From Promethearchaeum syntrophicum (lineage in GTDB: Archaea; Asgardarchaeota; Lokiarchaeia; Sigyniarchaeales; Promethearchaeaceae), in the NCBI RefSeq assembly GCF_008000775.2, contig NZ_CP042905.2, positions 2,910,001-2,942,000 on the forward strand: 32,000 bases of DNA. The letters are read 5' to 3'. The notes under the pieces were generated by a model that had not been told where the DNA came from, did no database searches, and worked only from the letters and a program-made list of their open reading frames with translations. The translations under genes were made by a program, and so were the position numbers. Of the stretch, positions 2,480 through 32,000 are shown piece by piece (position 1 is the stretch's first letter; each line of letters starts with the position of its first letter).

Positions 2480-2515
2480 GCTATTTTCAACTTATTTTTA
2501 TTTAATAATAGAAGT

Positions 2516-2537
2516 AAAAAAAAGAAGAATAAAAAAA
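2516..2537 (-). terminator. oligo-T tract pair downstream of operon A
   Basis: On the minus strand, a T7 run (2537-2531) and a T8 run (2523-2516) begin 24 nt after the TGA of the 1145-aa gene. Archaeal termination typically uses oligo-T tracts. Confidence 0.4.
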
Positions 2538-2560
2538 TATTCATTATATATTTTAGATTT

Positions 2561-5500: not shown

Positions 5501-5998
5501 TGAAAATGTCCAATTTTGGAAAGAATTCTGAATATCCACACTATCATCTTCAGTGAATAGATAGGTTCCGTCATCGTTCCCATAATTAAATGTCCCATTT
5601 ACCCAATTTCTGGTGTCTCTTAAATTAGTAATATCAGAATTTAATTTAGTACCTTCCCAATTTTCACCTAATGGTATTTGGTGCGATGCTTGACTCCCAT
5701 TTGTGAATGTTAAATCTATATCTGAATCAGTTCGGTTAGCATTATGTAGTAAATCCAATGATTGCCCGATTCCAGTATATTCATCAACTAAAATATCCGA
5801 GGAAACTGGAGAATCAATAATTTGAACGTTTTTGCTGATATCGTTTGAATCTGATTTTTTCTCAAAAGAATTGGACAAATTATCAACTTTAAAAACTAAG
5901 AAAAAAAATAAAAACCCTACAATAATTAAAGTTTTTAATTTTCTCTCAGTCTTTCCTTTCGACTTAATTTTTCTATTTCTTACATTTATCTTGTTCAT
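2561..5998 (-). CDS. giant surface protein A2: signal anchor, N-x-S/T-rich ectodomain, single TM, 188-aa Lys/Pro/Glu-rich cytoplasmic tail
   Basis: 1145-aa ORF. Its ATG overlaps the upstream stop (ATGA at 5998-5995). It has an N-terminal hydrophobic anchor (LKTLIIVGFLFFFLVF), more than 20 N-x-S/T sequons by eye, and a TM helix (IPAFLLYIMGVLMVGLIGMFIAY). The juxtamembrane motif YPKIIREIRSLNKAISKGK follows the TM. The tail is paralogous to that of the upstream gene. Confidence 0.85.
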   Translation of the reverse strand: MNKINVRNRKIKSKGKTERKLKTLIIVGFLFFFLVFKVDNLSNSFEKKSDSNDISKNVQIIDSPVSSDILVDEYTGIGQSLDLLHNANRTDSDIDLTFTNGSQASHQIPLGENWEGTKLNSDITNLRDTRNWVNGTFNYGNDDGTYLFTEDDSVDIQNSFQNWTFSDIDTGTANLMSGNYYDSASSTGRDALELVMEGNAAQLAGYYSYHEGDYCQWNSTFNIDRGQIEDSNLNFQANPNYLANFNSWEIRFYVDTVMIYSIGTYSLKNYGESLWHDFSIPMGIWVNTTNVFTSQLNETSHSIAVRLQYIATDASYSDGFTHISHQQVFLANIELEVKASVKAEQIGLKMNTNSILSSDFGVGTISQLSSWTTTPVYANFTADDSPYYDYTVDFNSDFNLYAQKTSPTTNYETNSGSPGTSFSIANASDANWEFYSYFSVPTGYAEENFTLYFPSDWTITWVSTPQLPTDNNITECDISKPGQLIIPVNNLSATPDGFWKFNAQSPNYIQNLVTSKNTTGTPGPSDWSVNNTYFSGEYLNITAQVKTSGVNFTDLSSTHANLDIFFPNGTKWISKSEEIAVLADGTIQFSPIQIPENGPDYIVGDYDVFVSWNNTDGINPINETGMAYTHITIKHYSILIPDDDFIDHFIEGSTTSLRINFFDIVSGEAIESATLTFLNLTNGLQTLNEIAPGYYFTELTAPSINPGNNTLNIEASHPLYASTSSNIVVEVELKTILDVEEFPRLTVALNQSFIINLNFKEETSGLGITGCNIDVTWEDNFIVNEINNGDYQIHCNNTNTGVNQIYSIEITASKYGFEQKTILNEIKIRQIETNITSINQNNSFTILPGRNFDPTIFIEDLDYGGYVEGCEVTFTWKYGEGEMEESNPGEYSTNLRNIQEGIYTIDIFVYKEGGNYNFQKFQMTLNVIAPQEGGIPAFLLYIMGVLMVGLIGMFIAYQQHFKYPKIIREIRSLNKAISKGKGAEKVLSVKNADELFIEDYKIRTKGTLPSRNKSLLKVHHIPISDQKSITKGDVKKNFSGEKPPIKESQKKTPKIPKVEKKLDIEGKLSSLEENLELPKAEQPKKVGPIQKIEKLKPDQFVKPNDIENGDLQPISKDQKPKKIRYLRKPKIKELPKKKSKKPKKD

Positions 5999-8016: not shown

Positions 8017-8018
8017 TC

Positions 8019-10250
8019 TTATTGCTCTAAAACATTCTCTCTCCAAATTTTTAATCTCTTTGATAATATTTTCCTCTTGAAATCATCCATAAAGGGTTTA
8101 CCATGCAAATCATTTATCCAATTTGTTATATCTGATTCAGTTCGAGCAATATTGAGCTTTTTACTAATTAAAGTTTTGATATCCTCCAAACCACTAACAA
8201 GCGTTTTAGGATCACTAACATCTATCGATTTAGATATTTCTTCAATTTTATCAATTATATCCTGTACATCTCCAGAATCATGTTTCGGTGATTCTTTTTT
8301 AACCTTTTTCTCCTCAACAACCTTAAGTGGTTCTTTACTTTGAGAAGGAGTAGGTATAATTGAGGTATCTTTTTTCAATGCGGGACTGAAAGGATCAATT
8401 ACTACAGGTTTGTGTTTTTCTATGGGTTTTTGCCTATCTGCCTGTTTTTGCAAAGAACTTATTGCTTGTGCCCCCAAACCCCCTTTACTTGGCTCACTAG
8501 GTTTTTTCTTGGGTTCCACTGGAATTAAGCGGGGTTGTTCTGATTTTTTAATTGGCTCTTGTTTAATTGGTTTCTTTATAATATCCTTATGGGCACCCAT
8601 CCAAGCGTCTTCTAGGATAGGGACGAAAATTTTAATATGTTCAGTTAAAATACTCCCGATTCCTGCAACTTCCATTTTAAATCCAGATATTCCTCTATTT
8701 ATCTTTATAATACTCAAAATTATCTCTTCATAATCTCTACTTACTCCCCAAAGATTTTGAAGCTTCCGATCTCTGTACGTAATATTATCCACTGAATCAA
8801 AGAATGCCATTTTTTGTTGATGAATAGGATCATCCGGATAAATAGAGCAGCATAATCTGATATTTATATGGTTTCGGACGTGCTTTAGAGGTTCAATATC
8901 AATATCGGAAAGCGTTGGTGCTACAATTAATATCCGCATTTTGGCTCTTGATATTGCATCATTAATTTGAGCCTGCATTCCTTCGGGAGTTTTTATAAAC
9001 CACACATCTTGCATGGTGAAATTAACTACCCGTTTCGATTCATCCCAAAATTCATCAATAGTCGCCGTGCTTAGATCTAATTGCTTTACAATTTTTCCTA
9101 AAATATCATCTAAGGTTATAACTACCTCATCTGAAAATGTGCTTCGTAAATCACCAAATGATTCATTTACTGTATTCGATATGTTCACAATTCTATCTTG
9201 CGTTTGAGTTAAAGTTGCATCAAATTGAGTAATGATAGAATCAAAAGATGTATGTAATTTATCTCCAATTGAATCCGCGTTAGAGGTAATTTCGGTAATA
9301 TCTTCAAGCAAGGTATCCATAATATTTCTAAACTTAGATTCAAATTCTGCTTGAAGTTCACTCCTTATGATTTCCATTTGATTATCAATATTCTTTTGAA
9401 CGACATCTTCTACTGTTTTTATTACAACACCAAGATGCAATTTTTCAAGATTAGTTGTGATTTTCTTAGAGACGATTTCAAATTGATTAAATAAATTTAC
9501 AAAATGTATATCTAGGAGAGAAATACTCTGATCACGCAAATCTTTAATACCCATAATCACTTTTTGTTGTTCCATTAGATTATGTAAACTATTATCAAGC
9601 ACTGTTCTTTGAGAGGATAATTGTTTGGAAACATCTGTTTTCATTTGATTTAAGTAGTCTATAAATTCGCTAAGAGTTTTAGCACCCTTACTACTTTCTT
9701 CAAAGGACATAAAAGAAGTTTGAAGGTCAGTCGGAGTAGACATCTTCATTGCAGCGATCATATTTCTAAATTTATCCAATTGGGCCATAAGGGCAGCGTA
9801 AGGAGGTAATGCTTGAAAATAAACAGTAGATCCCGGAATTTCTTTAAATAATCCTTTTTTTACGAATTTATCAGTAATTATTTTTATTTGTTCTATAGGG
9901 TGATTTGCGAGTATAGATAATTCTCCTAAAGACATCGGACCTTTTCCACTGGCCATAAAATAGAGTTGGATTTCTTCTTCACTTAATTCTATGCTCTTTA
10001 AAACTTCTTGGGTGAATTTCGTTGATTTTGGTTTAGTATCCGATTTCACTTCTTCTATTTCGAAAGAATCGACATTAAAACCTTTATTTATCGAAATGGT
10101 TAATTTATGGGCAGGCATGCCATGAATGTTTTCTAATTTTACTGGAAATTGAGCGTGTTCCATTGCTTTTCTATCTATTGGAAAAATTATATCTTTTAAG
10201 CAATGTTTACATCGAAAAGTAATTTCTTTCGGAATTTTGTGGATGTTCAT
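8019..10250 (-). CDS. TrmB-like winged-helix / long helical coiled-coil protein with PLD-like C-terminal module and Lys/Pro-rich linker
   Basis: The track ORF starts at TTG 10271. I prefer ATG 10250, which is preceded by AGGTGA (TAAGGTGAATTATATG) 10 nt after the upstream stop. The wHTH segment LSEEEIQLYFMASGKGPMSLGELSILANHPIEQIKIITDKFVKKGLFKEIPGSTVYFQALPP matches the TrmB HTH pattern. About 250 aa of heptad-like helical sequence follows. The segment WFIKTPEGMQAQINDAISRAKMRILIVAP resembles the PLD-like C-domain of TrmB-family proteins. Confidence 0.6.
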   Translation of the reverse strand: MNIHKIPKEITFRCKHCLKDIIFPIDRKAMEHAQFPVKLENIHGMPAHKLTISINKGFNVDSFEIEEVKSDTKPKSTKFTQEVLKSIELSEEEIQLYFMASGKGPMSLGELSILANHPIEQIKIITDKFVKKGLFKEIPGSTVYFQALPPYAALMAQLDKFRNMIAAMKMSTPTDLQTSFMSFEESSKGAKTLSEFIDYLNQMKTDVSKQLSSQRTVLDNSLHNLMEQQKVIMGIKDLRDQSISLLDIHFVNLFNQFEIVSKKITTNLEKLHLGVVIKTVEDVVQKNIDNQMEIIRSELQAEFESKFRNIMDTLLEDITEITSNADSIGDKLHTSFDSIITQFDATLTQTQDRIVNISNTVNESFGDLRSTFSDEVVITLDDILGKIVKQLDLSTATIDEFWDESKRVVNFTMQDVWFIKTPEGMQAQINDAISRAKMRILIVAPTLSDIDIEPLKHVRNHINIRLCCSIYPDDPIHQQKMAFFDSVDNITYRDRKLQNLWGVSRDYEEIILSIIKINRGISGFKMEVAGIGSILTEHIKIFVPILEDAWMGAHKDIIKKPIKQEPIKKSEQPRLIPVEPKKKPSEPSKGGLGAQAISSLQKQADRQKPIEKHKPVVIDPFSPALKKDTSIIPTPSQSKEPLKVVEEKKVKKESPKHDSGDVQDIIDKIEEISKSIDVSDPKTLVSGLEDIKTLISKKLNIARTESDITNWINDLHGKPFMDDFKRKILSKRLKIWRENVLEQ

Positions 10251-10260
10251 ATAATTCACC

Positions 10261-11535
10261 TTATACTCCAACTTTCTCCCAGTATGTATTTTCTAATAAT
10301 TCCAAAGCAATCTGCGCAATTTCCTTTGTTATTGGTGAAACTAATGAAGTTTCATCAATTGCACCCCATCTTAAGGAAGAGCGATCTTTAATTTTGGGTA
10401 ACAAAAATTCAGGAAATGTCGATAGAAAAGAGATTTCAGCCATCACACAAATCCAGTTTCTCCCTTCTCCATCTTTTATTAATTTCACAATACCTACTTC
10501 GAGTAGTTTCTTTAAAACATCATCAAGTTGAGCAAAATTTGATAAAACATTTGGGAGCTTCTTTACAGGATAGGCTTTTGTATTCAATAAAGCAAGTAAA
10601 TCAAAAATATCAGGATCTAAAATAATTTTTGCTAATTTTTCACTTTCTCCATAAAGATCAGTAAATGGATCATATGTAGCGTAATAATTATTTAATTCTT
10701 CAAAATATTGTTTATGGATTTCATGTTTTTTCATATCGGCCATTAATTCTTTTGGAGGGATCCGTATCAACGAAAGATCTTTTAGCAAAAACAAGTATTC
10801 CCCTTCACCGTGAACCCTCCCTGTGTCTTTGCTGTGAACCCCTCTTGCCCAATCCCTTCTGACTATATTCATCTCAAGAAAGGGTTTTAAAATAATATCC
10901 ATATTAGGATTCTTTTTGACTCGATCTATTAGCGATCTTAGTTTAATTCTGGAAAGTGGTCCTTCTTTTAATAGCTTCAACGTCATCATTCGTTCATAAC
11001 TTGAAAAGATCAAAGCAATTTTCTGAATTTTTGTTAAATTTGATAAGCGTTCGATTTGAAATAAGGCAAATTTTACTTGATTCAGCATTTCTCTTTCTAC
11101 TTCTCTTAAAACTTGTGCGGTTTTACTACTTTTAGCAAGTTTATTAAAAATTTTACCCAATTTCTCACACATCTGATAAAATACACCTTCATAGAGTTCA
11201 ACATCGTCGTCCAAAGCAAATAATGCTAAGATTAGGTACTGACTCTCATCAATTGAATGGTGATAATATGAGAGTACTCTGTATGGGGTTTCTTTAAGTC
11301 TTCCTAAAATGAAATTCTTTATCATCCGCTCGCGTTTTTTAAAATCCAATCCTGTGGTGTGATTATAGAATAATCTATACTTATCATTTTCAGTAATTAG
11401 ATCGTTTAAGTCGATCTTTTCCTTTTCGGTGCCGGTCCCAGGCATTTCAGAAACTAAATTTTTAAATTCGGGCTCAATATCCCCCGTTTCATCTTGATTT
11501 AGTTCAAATTGAAAAATTGTAATTGTAACAACCAT
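10261..11535 (-). CDS. longin-like alpha/beta N-domain + tandem winged-helix protein (paralogue of 24261..25340)
   Basis: 424-aa ORF with an ATG start; it is the first gene of operon A. Blocks EYLFLLKDLSLIRIPPKEL and NWICVMAEISFLSTFPEFLL align by eye with TYVFLLKYLICFRAPPLDL and QVYFLKSDIILDFVPMNYMI of the 359-aa protein. WH-like segments include TLKLLKEGPLSRIKLRSLIDRV. Confidence 0.55.
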   Translation of the reverse strand: MVVTITIFQFELNQDETGDIEPEFKNLVSEMPGTGTEKEKIDLNDLITENDKYRLFYNHTTGLDFKKRERMIKNFILGRLKETPYRVLSYYHHSIDESQYLILALFALDDDVELYEGVFYQMCEKLGKIFNKLAKSSKTAQVLREVEREMLNQVKFALFQIERLSNLTKIQKIALIFSSYERMMTLKLLKEGPLSRIKLRSLIDRVKKNPNMDIILKPFLEMNIVRRDWARGVHSKDTGRVHGEGEYLFLLKDLSLIRIPPKELMADMKKHEIHKQYFEELNNYYATYDPFTDLYGESEKLAKIILDPDIFDLLALLNTKAYPVKKLPNVLSNFAQLDDVLKKLLEVGIVKLIKDGEGRNWICVMAEISFLSTFPEFLLPKIKDRSSLRWGAIDETSLVSPITKEIAQIALELLENTYWEKVGV

Positions 11536-20470: not shown

Positions 20471-21034
20471 ATGATACGTCAAGTAAAACAATTCCAAGCT
20501 GAAGCGTTAATTAATTCCGAAACATATCGCAATTTTGTCCAAAAAACCCAATCTGAAATACTTAGGGGAATCTCTACTGTGGTTGTGCTCAAGATTATTA
20601 ATTCTCACGCTAAGGAAGGAATTTATGGTTATCTTTTATTACGCGAGTTGGAAGAATCAACAAAAAAAACACTCGTGATAGAAGAGGGAACACTCTATCC
20701 TTTACTAAAGAAGTTAGAAAAGGAAAAAGTAATTCGATCTGAACGAAAAGATGTTCAGGGGCGATCTCGTAAATATTATTTTATTACCCCTGAAGGTCAG
20801 AAAATTCAAAACCATTTAATGGGATTCTTTTCAAAATTGGTTGAATCGATGAGTGATTTAATGGATATCAATGTAGATTTACCGCAGAAAAATGTTCTTT
20901 TTTGCCCTAATTGTGCTAATCGAATCGATCTAAAGGATCCTGATTCTCATTTCTGTGAAGTATGTGGATTGAATATTCAGAATTTAAGGTTTGTTCCCAA
21001 AACAAATAATGAAAATGGAGATGAAATATTATGA
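20471..21034 (+). CDS. PadR-family transcriptional regulator with C-terminal zinc-ribbon
   Basis: It carries the classic PadR wHTH signature (GYLLLRELEE...EEGTLYPLLKKLEKEKVIRSERK...RKYYFITPEGQK) and a C-terminal CPNC...CEVC motif. Confidence 0.85.
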   Translation: MIRQVKQFQAEALINSETYRNFVQKTQSEILRGISTVVVLKIINSHAKEGIYGYLLLRELEESTKKTLVIEEGTLYPLLKKLEKEKVIRSERKDVQGRSRKYYFITPEGQKIQNHLMGFFSKLVESMSDLMDINVDLPQKNVLFCPNCANRIDLKDPDSHFCEVCGLNIQNLRFVPKTNNENGDEIL

Positions 21035-22194
21035 ATAGATATAATTATATTATTGACGATTTTCTAAAAAAAGTGAAGGAAAAACTACCTTCATGGATTC
21101 GGGAAGATAAAAAAGAATGTACCGATATTTTAGAAGAAATGGAAGAACATATTTTGGATCTTGCTCAAGAATTGGCAGGAGGTCCAGAAGAAGAGGCCGA
21201 TATAGAAAACATTCGCGAAGCTATTGCCCGGATGGGATCTCCTGAGGAAATTTCAAAGGAATATAAAAAAAGAGGAACTCCGAAGTATTATTTAACGGAA
21301 GAATGGATTCCTTGGTATAAAAATGTATTAGGTATAGTTATAGGCGTAATAATGGCAATAAATGTGATAACCCTAATATTTTCAATCGATGATGGGGAAA
21401 GTTTTTGGGAGATAGCATTAGGTTTCCTCAATGGATTATGGGGGTCAACTCTATTTTCATTCATCATAATCAGTGTTATTTTCATTGCGTTATCAATGGA
21501 AGGCTTTATGCCCCATGATTTTGCAGAAATGTACAATAAATATGGTAAATATGTGGAAAAAGAACCCAGTAAAACGAAGAGAGGAACACACGGTCATCAT
21601 TTTCAACGGGAAATGGAGAGAGTTGAACGTGATCTTCATAGGGTAGAAAAAACAGTTGAAAAAGCCACAAAAGAAGTGGAGAGAGCAAAAGCAACAGTAT
21701 CAGTGAAAATTCAAAAGAAAACTAAAAGAAAACCACCAATTAAGGTTGGAGACTGCTTGGCGAGCGGAATATTTGGAATATTATGGGGTTTGTTCCTGAT
21801 AATGCAACCAATTGAAAGTTTTAATGTGAACTTCACTCCAGAATTCTTAGAATTTGTGAGATTTATGGGTACCCTAGCTTTCAGTGAAGCAATAATTAAC
21901 CTTTTCCAAGCATTTGCGGGAATCTCTCGGTCATTTACTCAACAAATATTACTCTTCCTCTTAGGTATTGTGCAAGTATTGAATATTTTAGTCTTTGTCA
22001 GCGCTCTTAAAAGCCCAGAAATTCTTTCAATGTTCTCACTTGCATCAGGTTGGACTTGGGACCCAACTACAGTGTTTAAAATTTTGATGTATATATCTAT
22101 ATTCGGAACAGGAATTGACATCCTTAAAAAGTTGGGCGATATTGGGATGTATCAAGGCCGTTTAGAAAGATATTATGTTGAAACTTTTGATTAA
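21031..22194 (+). CDS. DUF1700/HAAS-like membrane protein partnered with PadR
   Basis: Its start overlaps the PadR stop (ATGA). The N-terminal helical domain ends in MGSPEEISKEY, typical of DUF1700 proteins. Multiple TM helices and a central charged coiled segment follow. Confidence 0.7.
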   Translation: MNRYNYIIDDFLKKVKEKLPSWIREDKKECTDILEEMEEHILDLAQELAGGPEEEADIENIREAIARMGSPEEISKEYKKRGTPKYYLTEEWIPWYKNVLGIVIGVIMAINVITLIFSIDDGESFWEIALGFLNGLWGSTLFSFIIISVIFIALSMEGFMPHDFAEMYNKYGKYVEKEPSKTKRGTHGHHFQREMERVERDLHRVEKTVEKATKEVERAKATVSVKIQKKTKRKPPIKVGDCLASGIFGILWGLFLIMQPIESFNVNFTPEFLEFVRFMGTLAFSEAIINLFQAFAGISRSFTQQILLFLLGIVQVLNILVFVSALKSPEILSMFSLASGWTWDPTTVFKILMYISIFGTGIDILKKLGDIGMYQGRLERYYVETFD

Positions 22195-22268: not shown

Positions 22269-23357
22269 TTATAATTTTGCGAAAAATTCAGTTTGGGTTT
22301 TTCCTGCTTCAATATGAAGCCCTTGTTGTACGAATTTTTTCATTCCAAGCCATGGAATGATATCGGCGTTATTTGAATCATGGAAAATAGTAGAATTTGC
22401 AAGCATTGGTATTTTATTAAAATCCCGTTTCAACCTTTGGAGGAAAGCAGGAAATTTTGAAGAGCCCCCAATTACAATAATTGAAGCAAATAACTCTCTT
22501 CGGAGAGAAGGAGGAGTTTCTTTCAAAGTTTCAATTAATAATTGATCTACTGCCATATTTTTGTTATTTCCGAGGAAAGGTTTGAATAAGAATTCAGGTA
22601 CAAGTATTTTTTCTATTCCAACAATGATTGATTCATTAAAATTGGGAATATTTATTGTTTCTTTTAATGCTTCTACAAGGATTTTTGATTGTAAAATTTC
22701 ATTAAAATTCTCAACAAAATGGGTTTTAGTAGTTTTAATCTCTTCCACTAATTGTTGAAACTGTTTGTTTTTAATCGGTGTAAATTTCGTTCGAAGTAGT
22801 GATAAGAGATATTCAGATAGATGTTTCCCAGCTAGTTCTGATGATTTAACTGAATTTCTGATGGGTTGTCGTTGTTGATATTGAATAGCTCTAGTTTGAT
22901 CATACCCGAGATCCAATACTGTGCAATTTTCTAAATCATAAAAATATACACTAAACTTACTACTTGGAGCATTCACAATTCTATATATATTAAATTGTTG
23001 AAACAGGAATGCTTTCACTGTGTTTATAGTTTCTTCAGACCATAATACTGGTGTACCTAAAATTAATGTTGAATTCTCGAGAATAGAAGAGAACCGACCA
23101 AAAATAAACAATAAAAAATTTTTAAATATTTCTTCTTTGTGAAATTGCTTGGAAGAAAAAATGTCTTTAATTTCCAAAATTCCTTGGTAGGAGAAAATTT
23201 TCTGATCAAATTTATGATTTTCAAAATCAGGTGAGGTTACTGATGTAAACCGTGGAATTCCCACTTTACTTGTAAATTTTAAGGGATACACATCGTTATA
23301 GGTATTAATTTTTGCGAATCCTGTTCCTAAATCGACTAATATTACATCATCACTCAT
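22269..23357 (-). CDS. divergent actin-family ATPase (actin-related protein, ARP-like)
   Basis: 362 aa. It is collinear with eukaryotic actin by eye. Phosphate-1 is ILVDLGTGFAK (actin: VCDNGSGMCKAG) and phosphate-2 is TVLDLGYDQT (actin: IVMDSGDGVT). LAGKHLSEYL matches LAGRDLTDYL, and IIVGIEKILVPEFLFKPFLG matches [21 protein letters not shown]. The adenosine motif is IIVIGGSSKFPAFLQRLKRDF. GGAGGT lies upstream of the ATG. Confidence 0.85.
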   Translation of the reverse strand: MSDDVILVDLGTGFAKINTYNDVYPLKFTSKVGIPRFTSVTSPDFENHKFDQKIFSYQGILEIKDIFSSKQFHKEEIFKNFLLFIFGRFSSILENSTLILGTPVLWSEETINTVKAFLFQQFNIYRIVNAPSSKFSVYFYDLENCTVLDLGYDQTRAIQYQQRQPIRNSVKSSELAGKHLSEYLLSLLRTKFTPIKNKQFQQLVEEIKTTKTHFVENFNEILQSKILVEALKETINIPNFNESIIVGIEKILVPEFLFKPFLGNNKNMAVDQLLIETLKETPPSLRRELFASIIVIGGSSKFPAFLQRLKRDFNKIPMLANSTIFHDSNNADIIPWLGMKKFVQQGLHIEAGKTQTEFFAKL

Positions 23358-24237
23358 TTATATTACCTCCTGTCCTAGTTCCGAGAATTGTAGATCGGAT
23401 GAACTTTTGTAAGTTTCTATACTGATCCTCTCCGTTTGCAAATTCAAAAATAGGAATTTTTAGAATTAAAGATAAATTTTCGGATAAAATCATATGATCA
23501 TGCTTGAAAGTTATTCCGTAAATCTTTAAATTTGGTTGATTTTGACGAATTTTGAATAATTTAGGGAGAGTGTAGGCAATAAAATCCATATTTGGTTCGA
23601 TTAAAATATAAGCAAAATTTTTGTTTTCCAATAATTGATACATCAATTTTTCATTCTCTATATCAATATTCCAAAATTTAACATCACAATTTGTAAGACC
23701 ATGATCCACGAATTTGAAGATATTTAAATTTTCTAAATTTGATAACTCAGAATCTGACACAGATTGGGAAGATCTTGGAGAATTTTTTGATAGAAAATGC
23801 CAGAAATCTTGCTTTATTTGTGATTGAGGACTAATAATTCCAATATCTAAAGATGTGTTACAGATTTTTAAAACAATTTCATCATAAGGATTGAACTCTT
23901 CCATAGAAAAAATTTCGCGAACTTTGATATGACCAAACTTCTCCAAAAATAGGTTCTTCAGTTCGAAAATTATATCATTGATCAGTTCTAGATTGTCATA
24001 TTTATTCACAAATAGAATTATCGAAACCTCATTATTTAAAAAAGAAGCTATATGCATTTCCAATTCAGACATCTGTAACATTTCAATTTTCTGCTTATAA
24101 TGAGTTAATTGTGCAGAAAATGCATCAATTGCAGTTGTAAATCCCCCTATTAATTGATAATCTACTCTTGTATCAGTAAAACTATGATTATAAATGCAAA
24201 TTCCTACATTCGTGATAACCATTACTTGATGAATCAT
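23350..24237 (-). CDS. longin-like domain fused to a degenerate Ras-like (pseudo-GTPase) domain
   Basis: 295 aa. The N-terminal ~105 aa has a TRAPP/sedlin-like longin pattern (VMVITNVGICIYNHSF...QLIGGFTTAIDAFSAQL...MHIASFLNNEVSIILFVNK). The C-terminal ~170 aa follows small-GTPase strand/helix order, with VKFWNID for WDTAG and ITFKHD for NKxD, but it has no GxxxxGK[ST] P-loop. AAGGAG lies upstream of the ATG. Confidence 0.45.
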   Translation of the reverse strand: MIHQVMVITNVGICIYNHSFTDTRVDYQLIGGFTTAIDAFSAQLTHYKQKIEMLQMSELEMHIASFLNNEVSIILFVNKYDNLELINDIIFELKNLFLEKFGHIKVREIFSMEEFNPYDEIVLKICNTSLDIGIISPQSQIKQDFWHFLSKNSPRSSQSVSDSELSNLENLNIFKFVDHGLTNCDVKFWNIDIENEKLMYQLLENKNFAYILIEPNMDFIAYTLPKLFKIRQNQPNLKIYGITFKHDHMILSENLSLILKIPIFEFANGEDQYRNLQKFIRSTILGTRTGGNINE

Positions 24238-24260: not shown

Positions 24261-25340
24261 TCAGTGAGATTCTAGATAGTTTTCTTTTAATATCGAAATA
24301 TAGCTTAAAAGAAGTTTATCGGGTTTTCTATCCTCAACATGCATATTATAGATCTGATTGATCATGTAGTTCATAGGAACAAAATCCAGAATAATATCGG
24401 ATTTTAAGAAATATACTTGTTCTTCATTTTGATCAACTACAATATCAACAATATCACTATTAATCAAATTATTGACTAAATTCATAACTTGATCGACACC
24501 GTGTAACTTTAGTTTCGTTAAAGAGCTGTGTTTGGCATAAGATTTCCTAAGAAAGTCAATAATGACCCAATAATTAGTTTGTCGTATATAACCGGCAATT
24601 TCAATATTGTCTTGCTCATTTGGCACATATTTCTTAAAGAAATCTCGAATTTTTTTTAAAATCTTTTGATTTAGTTCATTATCTTTCGCTATTTTTATCT
24701 TTTGGGATAAATCTAAAGGAGGTGCCCGAAAACATATAAGATATTTCAACAGAAAGACATAAGTGCCATCAACTCCACGCACGATAGAGGTTTTTAATAT
24801 ATCATTTTGGACTAACCCATCTATAATATATTCAAAGTTATATAATTTGGTCTTAAGGATATCCTCCAACCAAATTTTCAATTCATCCCGATAAAAACAA
24901 CCTTCTTCACTTAATGTTTTGAATATAGCCCGATTAAGATTACTCCCATACATCATTGCTCTACGTTGTTCGAGATTCGTGCTTGGAAATTCGGTACATC
25001 GCTGATAAATTGAAGGTAATAACGTATTAAAGGTATCTTCTTCAATAAAAGGTATTAAATAATATAGAAGATCGGAGATAACTTCCTTGTAATCCTCAGG
25101 TTGTTCTTCAATGGTTAGTAAAAGCGATAAGAAATAGTTATGTGTCGATCCTGTCCATACGGAGATAATATTTAATGCGCCCACATACATGGAAACAATA
25201 TCAGATTGCGCCCCGTAAAGGTGTTGAGAATATAGTTGCATCATAGTCTTATCCGATACATCTAATTCTTTTGGATATTTTCCTAACTCTTCCGCTCCCG
25301 AACGGTAATCCCATCTCCAAAGAATCATACCTATAGGCAT
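24261..25340 (-). CDS. longin-like N-domain + tandem winged-helix protein (paralogue of 10261..11535)
   Basis: 359 aa. Its ATG overlaps the stop of the upstream giant gene by 1 nt (TAATG) and is preceded by GGAGGAG. The N-terminus has a beta-beta-alpha-beta-beta-beta-alpha pattern (IGMILWRWD..GAEELGKYP..MMQLYSQHLYG..IVSMYVGALNIISVWTG..YFLSLLLTIEE..). Two WH-like units align with the 424-aa protein. Confidence 0.5.
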   Translation of the reverse strand: MPIGMILWRWDYRSGAEELGKYPKELDVSDKTMMQLYSQHLYGAQSDIVSMYVGALNIISVWTGSTHNYFLSLLLTIEEQPEDYKEVISDLLYYLIPFIEEDTFNTLLPSIYQRCTEFPSTNLEQRRAMMYGSNLNRAIFKTLSEEGCFYRDELKIWLEDILKTKLYNFEYIIDGLVQNDILKTSIVRGVDGTYVFLLKYLICFRAPPLDLSQKIKIAKDNELNQKILKKIRDFFKKYVPNEQDNIEIAGYIRQTNYWVIIDFLRKSYAKHSSLTKLKLHGVDQVMNLVNNLINSDIVDIVVDQNEEQVYFLKSDIILDFVPMNYMINQIYNMHVEDRKPDKLLLSYISILKENYLESH

Positions 25341-28300
25341 TACAAATCTCCTCCTGTTTTATAGTCTTGCGAAAGTTGATTTATATATTCTAAAACGAGA
25401 TCTACAATTCGAGGAAGATATTGTTCAGAAATACCCATATTTTTCAATTTGATATTGATTTCATCCCGCGAATAGATACTAAGGTCTTCAAACATAAGTT
25501 TAGCTTCCTCTACCAAGAGTGCTTTATTCGTAGCTTGCTGATAGAGATCAATAAACTGCTTAATATCTTCACGAACCGGTTTGAATGGTGATTCCAAATC
25601 TATTGAAATCCAACGCGATCCATATTCCTCACTAATGATTTCATCAATTCTGAGATTGTCTAATTTATACTTCCGCCCTCGTGTGATAACCAATTTTAGG
25701 TGATTTAAATCTTTTACAAATTTTGGAATTCGGGCATTTTTAATTACTATATAACTGCTTAATCCCGTTATAGTGATAAGGAAAGCAACTCCAATAATGA
25801 TCCAAAAAGGAATCGGAATATCAAGAAACTCTTGATAATTTACCTGAACATAAATCTTTTCTGTGGTATGAATATATTCTTCTTTCACAATATTAATTTC
25901 AATTACATAGAGCCCTATTTCATCAAATGATGATAACATAAGTTGAAAATTCCCATCTTCGAGTTCGATAGTTTCACTTTCAATTTCCACATTATCTTTT
26001 ATTATCCGATAAGTGAAAGTCCCCCCAGAAATTTGTTCATGTTTATGATTTCTAGTAGTGATATTTAAAATTAAATCATTTTTCTGTTCAATATCGATAT
26101 CAGAACTATTGTAATATTCTTGATTTTCATTCATAAATATAATATCTGTACTAATTGGTATCAAATGAATATCAAGCGTAAAGGTTGTAAGACTTGTAGA
26201 ATGATTTACTTTCTCAAAAACAATCGAAATAGAATAAGACCCGATAGGAAGAATTTCGGTACCTGGTTTAAATTGATAATTTCCCATTCCAAGATTGTTG
26301 AGTAGTCCGAAATCAGAATAATTCGCATCCACTGATTGAATAGTATAAGTTGTATTCGCATTCTCAATGTTTTCTTCGAAATTATTTACTAAGTTTAAAT
26401 TGAGACTAAATTCATCAAACCGATATATGTCAATTGTATTTCGAAAAATGGTGCTATCATTCAACGAAGTAGGAATAGCATAAATTTCAAATTTTGCAAT
26501 AGCTGTACTCGTAGTATAATAAATTTTCTCAAAAGTTATGATCGAAGTATAATTTCCGATAGGTAATTCGGAAGTTATAGGATCATATCTATAAATACCA
26601 TCGGATTGATGTTCTAATACTCCTGTAACTATAAGATCTGATTCTTCATGACTTAAGTAAAAGGAAGGAGCAATATTAGAGATCGGAACATGTTGATAGT
26701 TATCCCAGAATTCATATTCTACTGTAACATCTTTTTGAGTAACAATTAACTCGTGTTCAGAATAAAAGAGATCTGATCCATTTACTCTAGTTGGTACAGA
26801 ATATATCTCAATATTGAAGTTCCTTGTTCGTTCGTTATAATGATCTTTTTGAGCCAAAACAGATACTGAGTGATATCCTGGTGAAGCAATAGTTGAATTG
26901 ATTTCGATTGCATATAATCCATCAGATAAATAAGTCATTGGAAGATATGATGTAAAATCACCCCATTCAATCCATAATTCCCCATAATGTATTGGAGAAT
27001 CATTATTAAGGTCTCGATATGTTGCATAAACGGTGAAATTTTCATTATAAATCAATGAATCAACATTTTTTGAAATATTTAGAGTTGTTGAGATATTATA
27101 AATGTTAAATATTTCATTGATTGCTTCGGGATCTCCATATCCATATAAAACCGCTTCGATAGATATTGAATATACTATAGGGTTTCCTGAATCAAAGTAC
27201 CCAGAGGTTGTATTGATTACAAATGAATGGTTACCCAGTTCTCCGGGAATTTTATCTGCTTCGCCTTGAAAAATAATATTTCTCTCAATGTCCTCAACCG
27301 TTATGAGAGTTTCATTTGCCCATGTTGGACCTGAAGATCCACCAGGACCATAAGTGATATTATACATAAAGGATAAATCAATATTATCTCCCCAATCATA
27401 AGTTAACGGGAGTGAATTAAATAGAGTCAATTCTGTCTCAAAATTCTCTACTTGTTCACCTGCTAGTGAAATAGTGAGATTTTCATAAAGATAAGAAGAA
27501 TAGGGAGCAGCGGTAAAATTAAAAGCAGAAAAAAGATCATTAATTACAGTCTCTTCCGAAAAAAAGATTATTCGAATCGAATAATTAATAGAACTCAACC
27601 AATTGATAGTTACATTCCCGTTTTCATCGGATAATTCAAATCCAATGTAATCTCCATTGTCCGATGGAGAAGTCCAATTATATAATTCAACGATAGCACC
27701 ATCAACAGGATCCTCAGAAGGATTTTTAATATTTAGATGAATTTTAAACATATCTACTGTTTCTATATGATATGTTGTTGCTAACAGAACAAAATCATCT
27801 AAATAGGCTAAATTTGTGGTATTTCCATAATTATTGTATGTGATATTAATATCGTAATTCTGTTGAATATAATAAATTGAAATATTGCCATAAGAATCAG
27901 TTAAAGAATTATAAATTTGATCTTGTCCTGTAGCATCAAAAATCGAGATATTGGAGTTGGGGAGAACATTTCCAGTTATATCTTTAACTTGAATGTTGAA
28001 TTCTGTTAAATTTGTAGAAATAACAATAAAATCTCCATCACTTGGATAGGAGATTGAATAATTTCGAATAAATCGATTTTCAAGCCATGGTGCTCGTAAT
28101 ATCGCTGTATAATCTCCATCGGGTAAATTCCCGAATGAACAATTACCATTTGAATCGGTTAGTTTTGAAGCGTATTTTTGGTGATTTGTGGAATTTACAA
28201 GGGTAATGTTCACATCCGGAACATCTTTCAGTTCAGAATCAATAATATTAACTTTCAATACCGATATATAGATAACGTCGAGCAAAACTACATCATTTCG

Positions 28301-29479
28301 ATTGTAATCTGTAATATCATCATCAATGGTTATCTCAATTTTATTTTCAGATGCAAGATCTAAACCCAAATCTGTGAAGGAAACAAGAGTGAATGTACCT
28401 TGACCTAATACAGGAGTACTTTGACTATCATGCCAAATATCATTTACATACAGATCTACTATTCGACTATCTGAAGAAGTTCCTGAATTTAAGACCGAAG
28501 TAGACACATTTTGACTCCCTGATAAATCTACATCTAAATTATAGATAGCAAAATCATTAATGAATTGATTTTTTATATCGGATGTTTTAGTCCTTAAATC
28601 GGTTGCATTATCCCCGAATCCATAAATAATCGGCACAGTAAAATAATCTTCTGGATAAAGATCGGATTCATAATACTTTGTTACCATACCACAATTCTGA
28701 TTGAGAGCTGAATCAACATTTCCAAGAGAGCCACTAATATGAGTTTCAAGATCAGTCGGATCACCCACTTCATATTCTACAGGGGTGACAGGTGAATTCC
28801 ACCCGATTGCTCGTTTAGAAATTGCATCTTCTTGCCAAATGAGATTATCCACAGGATCAAAGTAGGCATTATCGTTATCAATAGTTTCATCAATATCCAA
28901 ATCACTTAATGACCAAAATTCAATATTGTATGCCCAATCATCAACATGAAAGGTAAAACTCATGACGAAAAAATTTTCATCCGGATAAACAGCATATACA
29001 ATTCTAATATTTACAGTTACGCTAGGAAATGAGAGTTCCACGACCGTAGATCCGATCTGAGCACCATTTGGGTTTTCTGCGTCTGATAATAGACGTAAAG
29101 GTTCTTCTGCAACTACTATTGCATCGCTCAAAGGTTTGGGATTTTTATCATAAGCTGCCACCCAAAACATAGAATAAAAATTATGATGGAACCCCTCGAA
29201 GTATAAATTACTTTCAGCATTTGATAAAAAGCCCTTTTCATCAATTTTCAATTCATAGTTTCCGTTATTTAGAGTTAGGGCTGTGGCTGAAGTCTGAGGA
29301 AATGTGGAATCATTATCTAAAAAACCGTCCCCAAGATTTTCGGTATTAGATTGAGATAAGTTAATCAAATTTTTGTTTGTATATAATATATTTGCGCATA
29401 AAATGAGCGATATTAGCATAATACCCAAGAATTTGGCCTTAAAATCCTCACGTTTAGTATTTTGTTTATAATCGAGCAT
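25340..29479 (-). CDS. giant surface protein B: signal anchor, sequon-rich ectodomain with CarboxypepD_reg-like and ~105-aa beta-sandwich repeats, TM, 133-aa cytoplasmic helical tail
   Basis: The track ORF starts at GTG 29488. I prefer ATG 29479 (MLDYKQNTKRED..). It has three TDxxGN-type prealbumin-like units (~27590-28260) and repeated modules ending ..LPIGxYxIxIxFEK.. (~25850-27130). The TM is FWIIIGVAFLITITGLSSYIVI. The juxtamembrane IPKFVKDLNHLKLVITRGR is collinear with the YPKIIREIRSLxKAIxKGK of the operon-A proteins. Confidence 0.85.
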   Translation of the reverse strand: MLDYKQNTKREDFKAKFLGIMLISLILCANILYTNKNLINLSQSNTENLGDGFLDNDSTFPQTSATALTLNNGNYELKIDEKGFLSNAESNLYFEGFHHNFYSMFWVAAYDKNPKPLSDAIVVAEEPLRLLSDAENPNGAQIGSTVVELSFPSVTVNIRIVYAVYPDENFFVMSFTFHVDDWAYNIEFWSLSDLDIDETIDNDNAYFDPVDNLIWQEDAISKRAIGWNSPVTPVEYEVGDPTDLETHISGSLGNVDSALNQNCGMVTKYYESDLYPEDYFTVPIIYGFGDNATDLRTKTSDIKNQFINDFAIYNLDVDLSGSQNVSTSVLNSGTSSDSRIVDLYVNDIWHDSQSTPVLGQGTFTLVSFTDLGLDLASENKIEITIDDDITDYNRNDVVLLDVIYISVLKVNIIDSELKDVPDVNITLVNSTNHQKYASKLTDSNGNCSFGNLPDGDYTAILRAPWLENRFIRNYSISYPSDGDFIVISTNLTEFNIQVKDITGNVLPNSNISIFDATGQDQIYNSLTDSYGNISIYYIQQNYDINITYNNYGNTTNLAYLDDFVLLATTYHIETVDMFKIHLNIKNPSEDPVDGAIVELYNWTSPSDNGDYIGFELSDENGNVTINWLSSINYSIRIIFFSEETVINDLFSAFNFTAAPYSSYLYENLTISLAGEQVENFETELTLFNSLPLTYDWGDNIDLSFMYNITYGPGGSSGPTWANETLITVEDIERNIIFQGEADKIPGELGNHSFVINTTSGYFDSGNPIVYSISIEAVLYGYGDPEAINEIFNIYNISTTLNISKNVDSLIYNENFTVYATYRDLNNDSPIHYGELWIEWGDFTSYLPMTYLSDGLYAIEINSTIASPGYHSVSVLAQKDHYNERTRNFNIEIYSVPTRVNGSDLFYSEHELIVTQKDVTVEYEFWDNYQHVPISNIAPSFYLSHEESDLIVTGVLEHQSDGIYRYDPITSELPIGNYTSIITFEKIYYTTSTAIAKFEIYAIPTSLNDSTIFRNTIDIYRFDEFSLNLNLVNNFEENIENANTTYTIQSVDANYSDFGLLNNLGMGNYQFKPGTEILPIGSYSISIVFEKVNHSTSLTTFTLDIHLIPISTDIIFMNENQEYYNSSDIDIEQKNDLILNITTRNHKHEQISGGTFTYRIIKDNVEIESETIELEDGNFQLMLSSFDEIGLYVIEINIVKEEYIHTTEKIYVQVNYQEFLDIPIPFWIIIGVAFLITITGLSSYIVIKNARIPKFVKDLNHLKLVITRGRKYKLDNLRIDEIISEEYGSRWISIDLESPFKPVREDIKQFIDLYQQATNKALLVEEAKLMFEDLSIYSRDEINIKLKNMGISEQYLPRIVDLVLEYINQLSQDYKTGGDL

Positions 29480-29737
29480 GAAAAGCACCTTCTAATTGTA
29501 ATGAGCTACTTTCACCTATATATATTTATCTTATATTATATAATTTGATGGATGGTGGAGGATTATCCAGTGATGAGGTATAATAGATAGATTATCTTTT
29601 TGTAATGTTTCTAAACTATTTTTTTCGTGTTTCCAAACAAGGTTACATCAAAAACGATTAATAAAAACAATTATATAAATAAGTTTACACTTTCACGCAT
29701 CTATATATATAATCATATTTCTTCCTTCATCATAAAA

Positions 29738-30238
29738 TCAAGTATCTCCATCTTTATATGATGCTCCAGTGAGAGCCTTACGCATAATTCTGTAACCAAA
29801 AAACGTTTTAGGGAAAAAACCTTCTTGAGAATATTCAATAGAAACGTAATCTAGTAAAAAAATCAGATCAGCAATCGCACATATAATTAAAAATCCCGTA
29901 ATCAAACGTTTTAAATTAATGCTTTCTGGGGGAATACCCATAAAATAGGGAACAAATATTGCTAGCACCATTCCAGCGATAACGAAAATATAGCTTAAAT
30001 AACGATACCACGCCTTTTTATATATGAATAGAAAGACGGTTAAAATAAATATCCCTATGATCAAACTTAACGAAAAAAATTGCCAGAAAGTAGTTAAGGG
30101 ATAAAAAATGAAGAACGTGATTATAATACCTAAGTTAATTATTTCAAATATTACAATTGAAAGGTGTCTTTTTTTCCAATTCGGGTTCGAGAAATCAAAA
30201 TAATTTTGAATATCAGATTGGTTCGGTTTGGTTGTCAT
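29738..30238 (-). CDS. small 4-TM membrane protein (tandem paralogue 1)
   Basis: 166 aa with an ATG start. It shares YFDFSNPNWKKRH, FIYK+AWY+YL.YIFV and DL.FLL.YVSIEYSQ blocks with the adjacent gene. Confidence 0.6.
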   Translation of the reverse strand: MTTKPNQSDIQNYFDFSNPNWKKRHLSIVIFEIINLGIIITFFIFYPLTTFWQFFSLSLIIGIFILTVFLFIYKKAWYRYLSYIFVIAGMVLAIFVPYFMGIPPESINLKRLITGFLIICAIADLIFLLDYVSIEYSQEGFFPKTFFGYRIMRKALTGASYKDGDT

Positions 30239-30261
30239 TTTCTTTCAAAAATCTTCTCTTA

Positions 30262-30741
30262 TTACAGATTTCTTTTTACGCTAATAAAAGTTCCATACTC
30301 TTTTAAATTTCTAGGTTTAGCCTTACGCTGAGAATATTCTATAGAAACGTAATTTAATAAAAAAACGAGATCAAAAATTGCACTTATAATTAACAATCCC
30401 AGAAGTAAACGTTCAAAAATAATTCCTTCTGGGGGAAAATCCATTAAAAATGTAACTAATATTGCACACACCATTCCAAAGATAACAAAAATATAGTTTA
30501 AATAATGATACCAAGCCCGTTTATATATAAAAAGAATGATGGTTATAATAAATATCCCAAAAAATGCACTCACGGTTGTAATTTTCCAGATATTGGTTAA
30601 AGGATTTAGTACAAGAAAAGCGATTATTATTGCTAAGTTAAATACGTCAACTATTAAAAATAAGATATGTCGTTTTTTCCAATTGGGATTTGAGAAATCA
30701 AAATAATGCTCAATATGAGATTGGTAAGGTTTGATTGCCAT
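30262..30741 (-). CDS. small 4-TM membrane protein (tandem paralogue 2)
   Basis: 159 aa with an ATG start. It is roughly half identical by eye to 29738..30238 and has the same predicted topology. Confidence 0.6.
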   Translation of the reverse strand: MAIKPYQSHIEHYFDFSNPNWKKRHILFLIVDVFNLAIIIAFLVLNPLTNIWKITTVSAFFGIFIITIILFIYKRAWYHYLNYIFVIFGMVCAILVTFLMDFPPEGIIFERLLLGLLIISAIFDLVFLLNYVSIEYSQRKAKPRNLKEYGTFISVKRNL

Positions 30742-30861: not shown

Positions 30862-31917
30862 CTACAGCCAATTTAGCACATCTTCTGCAAATCCTAGAAA
30901 ATCTTTAATTTCAAGCTGGGTTCCATCATCCAAAACGACATGTCCTGTGAAATACCCAAAAACTTGATGTTGGATTGATTTAAGAATTAGAAAGTTCGTA
31001 TTCCCTTGTCTATCTATAATCGGCTTAAAATCCATTTCAAACCGACCATCATTGCTTGAAAACTTCCAAGGTTTCATGAAATCCGTGGAATCTACATGAA
31101 AAGTAACTTCATCCAATTTATGAGCTTTTCCCTTATAGAATAACATATTTTCAGAAGCAGGTGAGCGATCACTAAATCCATATCCGATATTCCACCCTAT
31201 GGATTCTCCATTGAGATATCCAGAAGCAGACCCCCAATACCACTGATTTTTATAAGTCCAGCGCCCTCTTCCCCAATCTAATACGGCCATACTAGTATCA
31301 GATGAGAAATTATATTCTGTTTCTCCAATAGTGATTAATCCTTCTGTCGGCATGCAATTGACCTTTTGATTATAATAGAATGCTTTTCGGTTTTCTTTCC
31401 AAGAAGTAGCGATAACCATTGTATCCATAGTTGGATCTTGATGAATTGTGAGCGTGCCTTTTAATCCAGTTTCCCCTTTACAATTTTTAAATTTAGGACA
31501 ATCAACAGTGATAACACGTTTAGGACCATCATATTCAAATTTCAATGCAATTTTTTTATCTTTGAATTCAATTATTCCATCTCCAGAATCTGAGGGAAAT
31601 CCTGTTTTTCCCCGAGGTAATATGGACATTGTGTCAAATTGTGTATAAGTTTTAGTCTCAAAATCTAACCAAGCAACTGCCACCAATCCCAAATACCCAA
31701 GATCGCTGATAGTAAATGTGATCCCATATTTTTTTGAAGAATCCAAGATGGCAAAATAATCCCATTCCTTGATCCGGTGCCAACCAGCTTTAATTTTACT
31801 CCTATCATAATGCCACAATAACTTGGTGGCATATCCCGATTCAACTAAATGTCCTTTATCATCTAATAATTCAATTGGTGTTGTAATTTTGTTTTGAATT
31901 CCCATAGGATAAATCAT
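30862..31917 (-). CDS. DUF2804-like protein
   Basis: About 351 aa from ATG 31917 (the track lists TTG 31920). The soluble, beta-rich sequence has the WHRIKEWDYFAI motif and ~350-aa length that I associate with DUF2804. This rests on recall only. Confidence 0.45.
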   Translation of the reverse strand: MIYPMGIQNKITTPIELLDDKGHLVESGYATKLLWHYDRSKIKAGWHRIKEWDYFAILDSSKKYGITFTISDLGYLGLVAVAWLDFETKTYTQFDTMSILPRGKTGFPSDSGDGIIEFKDKKIALKFEYDGPKRVITVDCPKFKNCKGETGLKGTLTIHQDPTMDTMVIATSWKENRKAFYYNQKVNCMPTEGLITIGETEYNFSSDTSMAVLDWGRGRWTYKNQWYWGSASGYLNGESIGWNIGYGFSDRSPASENMLFYKGKAHKLDEVTFHVDSTDFMKPWKFSSNDGRFEMDFKPIIDRQGNTNFLILKSIQHQVFGYFTGHVVLDDGTQLEIKDFLGFAEDVLNWL

Positions 31918-32000
31918 CAATTCGCCAAATTTAAGTGTTTTTTTTTAATTCTATAAAATTAAGAAAACGTGGAGTCTCTCACGAAGAGAATGGAAAAGTT

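Follow-up and report, generated by a model that had tools for sequence, protein, structure and literature searches.

Longin and roadblock domains dimerize and dock on the switch face of small GTPases, as in the TRAPP-Rab1, Mon1-Ccz1-Rab7, MglB-MglA, and SRX-SRβ pairs, and the MglA-MglB polarity module of Myxococcus is linked to MreB, of the actin-family cytoskeleton, and to surface adhesion complexes. PseudoGTPases act as fixed scaffolds, and those of eukaryotes, for example CENP-M, pG1/pG2 of p190RhoGAP, and the G-like domain of the dynein light intermediate chain, have degenerate G motifs and are put to structural or scaffolding use. For the archaeon Promethearchaeum syntrophicum MK-D1, 74 small GTPases have been reported, with roadblock or longin domains fused to 26 of them, and as a rule their genes do not share operons with those of their regulators (Tran et al. 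2024, PMC10933270). Asgard actin-related proteins are already known (PMC9834061). Here, we describe a 295-residue protein encoded in a 32,000-nucleotide stretch of P. syntrophicum DNA (contig NZ_CP042905.2, positions 2,910,001 to 2,942,000; hereafter the window), in which a longin domain is joined to a predicted Ras-like domain with no consensus G motif left, and whose gene belongs to a conserved four-gene cassette ending with an actin relative. The best overall explanation, to which we assign a probability of roughly 55%, is that this protein is a switch-less longin-pseudoGTPase adaptor made from the cassette.

The nearest described systems are the Asgard longin-GTPase fusions of the Rag/Arf-like class (PMC10933270), which likewise combine an N-terminal longin domain and a Ras-superfamily fold in one chain of ~300 residues, in the same lineage. 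While the N-terminal domain of the 295-residue protein is homologous to that of intact fusions (P0020 and P0021 in our searches), its family differs from them in being without consensus G1, G3, G4, and G5 and in being locked into a cassette, and the protein itself matches no Pfam GTPase family. TRAPPC1/Bet5, the best profile match of the N-terminal domain, also opens with strand β1. However, TRAPPC1 is a free-standing subunit with TRAPPC4 and TRAPPC3/5 as its partners and a separate Rab as its target, whereas here the longin domain is fused to a G-like domain and the cassette holds no TRAPPC3-like gene. Eukaryotic pseudoGTPases similarly show a G-domain fold with degenerate G motifs; in contrast to them, the 295-residue family is archaeal, shares no sequence relationship with them, is longin-fused, conserves the P-loop Lys and the G3 Asp, and has a pseudoGTPase status that is predicted. 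MglA-MglB and SRX (longin-like)-SRβ also pair a roadblock/longin fold with a Ras-like domain, but these are separate polypeptides with active GTPases, MglB is a roadblock protein with an N-terminal helix, and we found them to be homologous to our protein no further than at the level of the fold. Rag/Gtr proteins do carry a G domain and a roadblock/longin-superfamily dimerization domain in one chain, and one half of the heterodimer may be "locked." Their order is reversed, however, with the G domain N-terminal and the roadblock C-terminal, their G motifs are intact, and Pfam Gtr1_RagA does not match the 295-residue protein. Full-text literature searches, incomplete in coverage and hence yielding absence of evidence only, returned no paper on an Asgard pseudoGTPase, a motif-degenerate fusion, or this cassette. 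While the longin-GTPase architecture is already known, the family-wide degeneration of the motifs and the fixed cassette link to a surface protein and an actin relative appear new.

Domain architecture of the 295-residue protein

The gene is real and conserved. Its reading frame lies on the minus strand (Table 1), the plus strand over the same interval is full of stops, the G+C content is ~31% across the window, and the start, MIHQ, is conserved throughout the family alignment. All motifs quoted in a preliminary description of this stretch are present in that frame, including LIGGFTTAIDAFSAQL (residues 29-44), ISPQSQIKQ (135-143), FWNIDIE (188-194), and ITFKHD (242-247). A word-indexed search with the single protein found 3 homologues, and the same type of search with the family alignment as query found no further distant relatives. 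An exhaustive search of 1.84 billion cluster representatives produced 31 matches. The 11 at E<=1e-10 are essentially all full-length members or fragments of the longin/degenerate-Ras family, while the weaker ones cover only residues 1 to ~105. Pfam and PDB searches with the single sequence gave no significant match, and a pattern scan of the genome collection gave none that was confirmed as a relative. The family is thus small; its homologues show 23-90% identity, and it was found only in Promethearchaeota-type contigs.

Profile comparisons identify the N-terminal domain as a longin domain of the Sybindin/TRAPPC1 type. When a profile of 25 N-domain sequences was compared with TRAPPC1 and Bet5 by hhalign, the two aligned over 95 columns (residues 2-100) with a probability of 95.3% (E=2e-8). 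In this alignment LisGFltAinsf is found opposite LMYGMLFSIRSF, and LIGGFTTAIDAFS is paired with LMYGMLFSIRSF, which recovers the helix parallel drawn in the preliminary description. Against PDB sequences, the three best nonribosomal matches of the profile were AP-4 sigma (sigma1, E=0.0046), Bet5 (0.0095 and 0.043), and TRAPPC1 (0.023), all of them longin folds, and Bet5/TRAPPC1 align with it end to end. When the 25 sequences were scanned one by one against Pfam, the commonest families were Sybindin (6/25), Clat_adaptor_s (5), Longin (4), and Fuz_longin_1 (3), together with MAPKK1_Int, all of these matches being sub-threshold; the 295-residue protein itself reaches only E=0.067 and 13.7 bits with Sybindin, under the cut-off of 25. 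The AlphaFold2 (AF2) model described below places strands at residues 2-9 and 14-19, a helix at 27-47, a low-confidence segment at 44-55, strands at 59-66 and 71-78, and helices at 83-101 and 112-125, that is, the order ββ-α-(low-confidence loop)-ββ-α-α. Since the modelled domain opens with a β-strand, it is without the N-terminal helix of roadblock domains and fits a longin (β1-β2-α1-β3-β4-β5-α2-α3) rather than a roadblock domain, although the place of β3 is taken up by low-confidence sequence. A conserved F-x-P-[FY] helix (residues 115-122) lies within this N-terminal part, and one of the matches of the whole model in BFVD, searched with Foldseek, is the longin-SNARE synaptobrevin (E=2.8e-3). 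The earlier view that residues 1-105 resemble longin folds of the TRAPP Bet5/sedlin type is upheld by the profile matches. The Pfam family BLYB (Borrelia hemolysin accessory protein) gave a near-threshold match to residues 19-101 (window 23935-24183, minus strand; E=2.6e-4 with the full protein, E=4.6e-5 and 24.1 bits with the N-domain alone), which is under the cut-off of 25 bits and which we did not adopt as an assignment; BlyB itself may have a longin/roadblock-like fold.

The N-domain is modular and occurs in five settings. It is found alone in proteins of 116-200 residues, with multi-pass membrane regions (~300 residues) in P0016, P0024, and P0026, with a genuine Ras domain in P0020 (Pfam Ras, 2e-44), with a divergent GTPase that has an intact P-loop in P0021 (GEAGVGKS and NKQD; Pfam Roc, 1.2e-7), and fused to the degenerate C-terminal domain of the 295-residue family. 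Both P0020 and P0021 came out of the exhaustive search at E=7e-6 and match the N-domain hidden Markov model (HMM) with 57 and 54 bits, respectively. Much larger proteins, of 1182 and 533 residues, also contain this longin-type N-domain (the set of N-domain fusions comprises P0016, P0024, P0026, P0025, and P0029). The longin domain thus seems to be a versatile unit in Asgard archaea that has been joined to several partners.

As modelled, the C-terminal domain has a Ras-like G-domain fold. A first AF2 model based on 4 sequences had a predicted local distance difference test (pLDDT) score of 46.5 and was discarded for a run with 12 family members, which reached a pLDDT of 77.5 and a predicted TM-score (pTM) of 0.68, with most of the C-domain at pLDDT 80-90. 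The order of its secondary structure elements, β1-α1-β2-β3-α2-β4-α3-β5-α4-β6-α5, is exactly that of the Ras G domain, with a disordered insertion (residues 156-169) at the place of switch I. A Foldseek search of PDB returned 606 matches at E<=1e-3, and the best 50 of these are exclusively small GTPases, namely Rab8, Rab1, Rab6, Rho, K-Ras, Arf (including the Asgard GerdArfR1), and MglA (3t1o and 3t12), all with probability 1.0, a target-normalized TM-score (TMt) of 0.55-0.67, and ~175-190 aligned columns. In BFVD, the top matches are Ras/Rab proteins of giant viruses, nearly all of the top ones being small GTPases. At the level of sequence, we claim homology to Ras only by way of P0021, which shares its N-domain and its F-x-P-F linker helix with the 295-residue protein and differs little from it in length. 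An alignment of the C-domain HMM to the G domain of P0021 runs from one end to the other (24.8 bits, linker included), and with the linker removed hhalign still gives 144 co-linear columns at P=0.0013. Together with P0010, a family member that reads GNEFEGKT at the P-loop, the intact GEAGVGKS and NKQD of P0021 in a protein of the same architecture indicate that the C-domain descends from a real GTPase. We hold the two-domain longin plus Ras-fold architecture with high confidence.

State of the nucleotide-binding motifs

We counted motifs in a MAFFT alignment of 17 nonidentical family members and P0021, in which the remnants of G1, G3, G4, and G5 fall exactly where the preliminary description had put them (Table 1). 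In the P-loop, where that description allowed for an overlooked intact motif, the protein reads SPQSQIKQ and hides none. The consensus GxxxxGK[ST] is kept by 1/17 members (P0010) and by the more distant P0021; P0003 reads GSQSQTKS at this position. The Gly just before the P-loop Lys is replaced by I/T/L/S/A/Y in 16/17, and a Ser/Thr follows the Lys in 7/17. The Lys itself (K142) is present in 16/17, and a family-specific "QS" pair in 15/17. In G3, the Asp (D192) is found in 15/17, W189 is invariant, and N190 and D192 are nearly so, while the Gly of DxxG occurs in none (0/17); this Gly is also missing from P0021 (FYNFDLNT), despite its intact P-loop. NKxD is absent from all 17 members at G4, where the columns are variable, and so is SAx at G5 (0/17), where the conserved family motif is IPIFE.

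No consensus G motif is thus left in the 295-residue protein, and the elements of guanine specificity are lost family-wide, so that it shows the combination by which pseudoGTPases are recognized, a G-domain fold (here predicted) with disrupted G motifs (here read from the alignment). The statement that all nucleotide-binding motifs are degenerate, made in the preliminary description, stands when they are measured against the consensus patterns but not for K142 and D192, which are kept and rank among the most conserved positions. The best conserved residues of the C-domain (I132, S139, K142, W146, W189, N190, D192, and G241) cluster on the former phosphate-binding site. Selection still acts on this site, whether in favor of a partner or of a noncanonical ligand, and some residual phosphate binding through the surviving K142 and D192 may persist, to judge from these residues. 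GTP/GDP cycling, in contrast, has probably been lost.

The conserved cassette and a proposed function

As listed in Table 1, the gene lies in a tightly packed cassette whose order is giant surface protein, ~360-residue partner, longin/Ras-like protein, and actin relative, and in the window its successive genes overlap by 1 nt, leave a gap of 23 nt, and overlap by 8 nt. The last of these junctions, ATGAGTGA, joins the stop codon of the 295-residue gene to the ATG of the actin-family gene downstream. The preliminary description had correctly placed our gene directly upstream of an actin-related gene and overlapping it, and the link is stronger than was known then because the same order is kept in 8 independent loci (the window, L001, L002/L003, L048/L049, L050, L055, L056/L057, and L058), over which the family diverges down to 23% identity. 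The intact GTPase P0021 has an unrelated neighborhood (JAB/ThiF), which argues that the linkage to actin is specific to the degenerate family.

Table 1. Features of the cassette and of the 295-residue protein, with positions in the window
Feature	Positions	Strand	Basis or remark
Longin + degenerate Ras-like gene, whole	23350..24237	minus	ATG-to-TGA open reading frame, 295 residues
Longin domain, residues 1-125	23863..24237	minus	AF2 elements, hhalign, PDB profile matches
Ras-like domain (predicted G-domain fold), residues 126-287	23377..23862	minus	AF2 topology, Foldseek
P-loop (G1) remnant SPQSQIKQ, residues 136-143	23809..23832	minus	aligns to GEAGVGKS of P0021
G3/switch II remnant FWNIDIE, residues 188-194	23656..23676	minus	in place of WDTAGQE; FYNFDLNT in P0021
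G4 remnant ITFKHD, residues 242-247	23497..23514	minus	in place of NKxD; LANKQD in P0021
G5 remnant FEFAN, residues 264-268	23434..23448	minus	in place of SAK; FSA in P0021
Divergent actin-related protein, 362 residues	22269..23357	minus	Pfam Actin E=9.4e-24, 84.2 bits vs cut-off 27
Soluble partner, 359 residues	24261..25340	minus	conserved, directly upstream of the 295-residue gene in every cassette
Giant single-pass surface protein, 1382 residues, first cassette gene	25340..29488	minus	Ig-like/CarboxypepD_reg repeats (Pfam), hydropathy

The giant is the only one of the four proteins with transmembrane segments. From its hydropathy, it is predicted to consist of an N-terminal signal anchor, ~1,190 extracellular residues, a transmembrane helix (residues 1230-1248), and a cytoplasmic tail of 133 residues. 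Across the loci, the giants measure 1,340-1,980 residues and carry CarboxypepD_reg, Ig-like, or Laminin_G/Pentaxin domains, and the first cassette gene codes for such a homologous giant in L001, L002, L048, L050, L056, and L058. The partners, of 359-412 residues, belong to no detectable family. The one in the window has 23 homologues, one of them annotated as Promethearchaeota archaeon, and no Pfam or PDB match. A winged-helix reading of this partner was dropped since its match to PH1932 is not significant (E=0.16), and so was a second longin domain at its N terminus, which would have suggested a heterodimer like those of TRAPP or Mon1-Ccz1, since hhalign against the longin family and TRAPPC1/Bet5 gave a probability <1%. 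As for the actin relative, its PDB matches include actins and Arp1/Arp2, with E~1e-15 to 1e-17, and it shares 21% identity with β-actin. It keeps the phosphate-1 (DLGTGFAK) and adenosine (GGSSKFPA) motifs, while its phosphate-2 motif is DLGYD versus DSGDG, and it has Ser and Arg where actin has Q137 and H161. Judging by these substitutions, its ATP hydrolysis and polymerization behavior may differ from those of actin or lokiactin.

Some loci carry a paralogous two-gene pair of a giant and a ~370-residue partner, without the longin/Ras-like and actin genes (L002 9350-15181, minus strand, and L051/L052 3388-9113), and the pair in L002 is convergent to a full cassette. It looks like the giant and its partner form the core, to which the longin/Ras-like and actin genes are an add-on. 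We compared the cytoplasmic tails of the giants in the window (25343-25741, minus strand), L001, L002, L048, L050, and L051. A distal helical module of ~70 residues (FI..YQ.ATGK ... LSIYS) is common to the 5/5 giants examined from four-gene cassettes and is found in 0/2 of the pair-only giants, which keep only a juxtamembrane motif (R-[IL]-P..[IV]K ... RW..LDL). In this small sample, the pattern suggests a connection of the distal module with the longin/Ras-like protein, the actin relative, or both.

We propose the following model. A two-domain cytosolic protein, derived from longin-GTPase fusions of the kind often seen in Asgard archaea and stripped of consensus G1, G3, G4, and G5, would no longer cycle between GTP and GDP and would have become a fixed pseudoGTPase adaptor. 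It would be produced together with the giant, the ~360-residue partner, and the actin relative from the one cassette. The longin domain would serve as a dimerization or docking platform, as suggested by the fact that longin domains do so in TRAPP, Mon1-Ccz1, and SRX-SRβ, while the remodelled former nucleotide face would bind a partner constitutively. The cytoplasmic tail of the giant would be the base of the complex, and the 295-residue protein would recruit or regulate the actin relative, its two domains tying that tail to the actin relative at the membrane. The adaptor role itself is a tentative assignment, somewhat short of an even chance, and, like the loss of cycling and the physical interactions, it is something that we infer. 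Ideas on how eukaryotic trafficking and cytoskeletal control originated in Asgard archaea give a central place to actin regulators and to longin/roadblock-GTPase pairs, and the 295-residue family would represent an Asgard longin-GTPase fusion remodelled into a probable pseudoGTPase, a phenomenon so far discussed mainly for eukaryotes. Members of this degenerate kind are missed by sequence-based censuses of Asgard GTPases. The link within the cassette provides a testable hypothesis for a connection between the Asgard cell surface and the actin-family cytoskeleton, and the four candidate partners (the tail and the proteins of 359, 295, and 362 residues) are small enough for reconstitution. A further step would be to see in the cassette an archaeal apparatus dedicated to transmembrane coupling, with an adhesin or receptor outside the cell and a filament or nucleator of the actin family inside. 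This is speculative and, on present evidence, rather unlikely. If true, the cassette would be a functional analogue of integrin/cadherin-adaptor-actin linkages, in which a "frozen" GTPase would have become a permanent adaptor, with the longin domain fused to it as the docking platform, and it could underlie protrusion formation or attachment to partner cells in Promethearchaeia.

Several points speak against the adaptor proposal. The co-occurrence of tail module and cassette comes from a small sample (5 versus 2 loci), the interactions among the four gene products are ones that we infer, and the expected third strand of the longin domain (residues ~51-57, IEMLQM) falls in a segment of the model with pLDDT<50. 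The G-domain assignment is drawn from a structure predicted from a 12-sequence alignment and from one bridging homologue, and sequence comparisons with canonical GTPases do not reproduce it. A Pfam scan of the 295-residue protein found no Ras, Roc, Arf, Gtr1, or P-loop family at E<=1, a search of PDB sequences with the C-domain profile found no GTPase, its best match being a Rossmann stretch of glycerol-3-phosphate dehydrogenase (E=0.004), and hhalign of the C-domain with a canonical Ras/Rac/Rab/Arf/Ran/P0020 profile, although co-linear over 142 columns, was not significant (P=0.1). A global-mode hhalign run against a poorly aligned set of three GTPase sequences was meaningless and was not used. 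The earlier reading of residues ~125-295 as Ras-like is hence carried by the modelled Ras order, the Foldseek matches, and the bridge to P0021, and not by direct profile comparison with canonical GTPases. The insignificant sequence tests, the dehydrogenase match, and the 12 sequences behind the model are also what one would cite for a modelling artefact or convergence, in which case the C-domain would be a generic three-layer α/β domain of flavodoxin/Rossmann-like type and the motif remnants coincidental. We consider this very improbable: the elements follow each other exactly as in Ras, all of the 50 best PDB matches and nearly all top BFVD matches are small GTPases, with Foldseek probability 1.0, and P0021, with its real P-loop and NKQD, aligns co-linearly with the domain, the remnants falling on G1, G3, G4, and G5.

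A last point against the adaptor proposal bears on activity. The P-loop Lys, the G3 Asp, and the new "QS" and "WN" pairs are the best conserved residues of the C-domain, a pattern that would be expected, as far as an alignment can tell, if the site still bound a phosphate-bearing ligand. The main rival builds on it and takes the C-domain for a still working switch, for a nucleoside triphosphate or another phosphate ligand, with a noncanonical site in which K142 would act as the Walker A Lys and D192 as the Walker B Asp, Q138/S139 would replace the contacts of the glycine-rich loop, base specificity would be relaxed since NKxD is gone, and the fused longin domain would regulate the switch in cis in the manner of a guanine-nucleotide exchange factor (GEF) or GTPase-activating protein (GAP). 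The canonical GNEFEGKT of P0010 and the GSQSQTKS of P0003 fit such a switch, and the intact P0021, itself without the DxxG Gly, implies that the loss of this Gly alone does not mean inactivity. However, the Gly before the Lys is replaced in nearly the whole family, the Mg2+-ligating Ser/Thr is retained by a minority, NKxD and SAx are gone from every member in columns that are not conserved, and no Pfam P-loop family is detected, which makes a working switch a serious but unlikely alternative. Under another explanation, the protein would mainly regulate a genuine small GTPase whose gene lies elsewhere in the genome, and its longin domain would provide a GEF/GAP platform of the kind known from TRAPP or Mon1-Ccz1; the dead G domain would be a decoy or take part in dimerization, like the inactive half of a Rag pair, and the neighboring actin relative would be a downstream effector and not bind directly as a partner. 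The homology of the N-domain to TRAPPC1/Bet5, part of the core of a Rab GEF, is consistent with this, as are the 74 small GTPases of MK-D1, 26 of them fused to roadblock/longin, and the location of their regulators mostly outside operons (PMC10933270). Yet no GTPase gene is found in or beside the cassette in 8/8 loci, and the GEF activity of TRAPP needs a heterodimeric longin pair and TRAPPC3-like subunits, while no second longin was detected in the partner, so that we regard this platform role as quite improbable. The adaptor proposal remains our preferred explanation.

Other genes in the window and at the comparison loci

Convergent to the cassette lies a PadR-HAAS sensor pair (window 20471-22194, plus strand), made up of a PadR-type regulator of 187 residues with a C-terminal zinc ribbon and a 387-residue multi-pass membrane protein with an N-terminal HAAS domain, the two genes overlapping by 4 nt (21031-21034). 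Just upstream of the cassette, two tandem paralogous genes (29738-30741, minus strand) encode small membrane proteins of 166 and 159 residues that are 57% identical; they received no family assignment and were not found upstream of the cassette in the other loci. In L048, a very large TIR/NACHT-like/WD40 protein (1-2954, minus strand; Pfam TIR_2, AAA_16, NPHP3_N, and beta-propellers) is encoded on the other strand, directly upstream of the cassette.

Further away, four consecutive, partly overlapping open reading frames of 1145, 683, 750, and 424 residues (2561-11535, minus strand) form an uncharacterized operon with no Pfam match at E<=1e-3, and tRNA and Rfam scans of the window revealed no RNA genes. 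The window also carries a DUF2804 gene (30862-31920, minus strand), which we compared with loci L006 and L011-L047. Its protein is 87-88% identical to those of Promethearchaeum sp. metagenome-assembled genomes (MAGs), which agrees with an origin of the window in this genus of the Promethearchaeota (the former Lokiarchaeia), and 55-58% to those of other Asgard MAGs; beyond Asgard, it is 62% identical to a protein of an unclassified bacterial MAG and ~45-52% to proteins of Bacillota/Mycoplasmatota. Since its closest relatives beyond Asgard are bacterial, this suggests inter-domain transfer of the DUF2804 gene.

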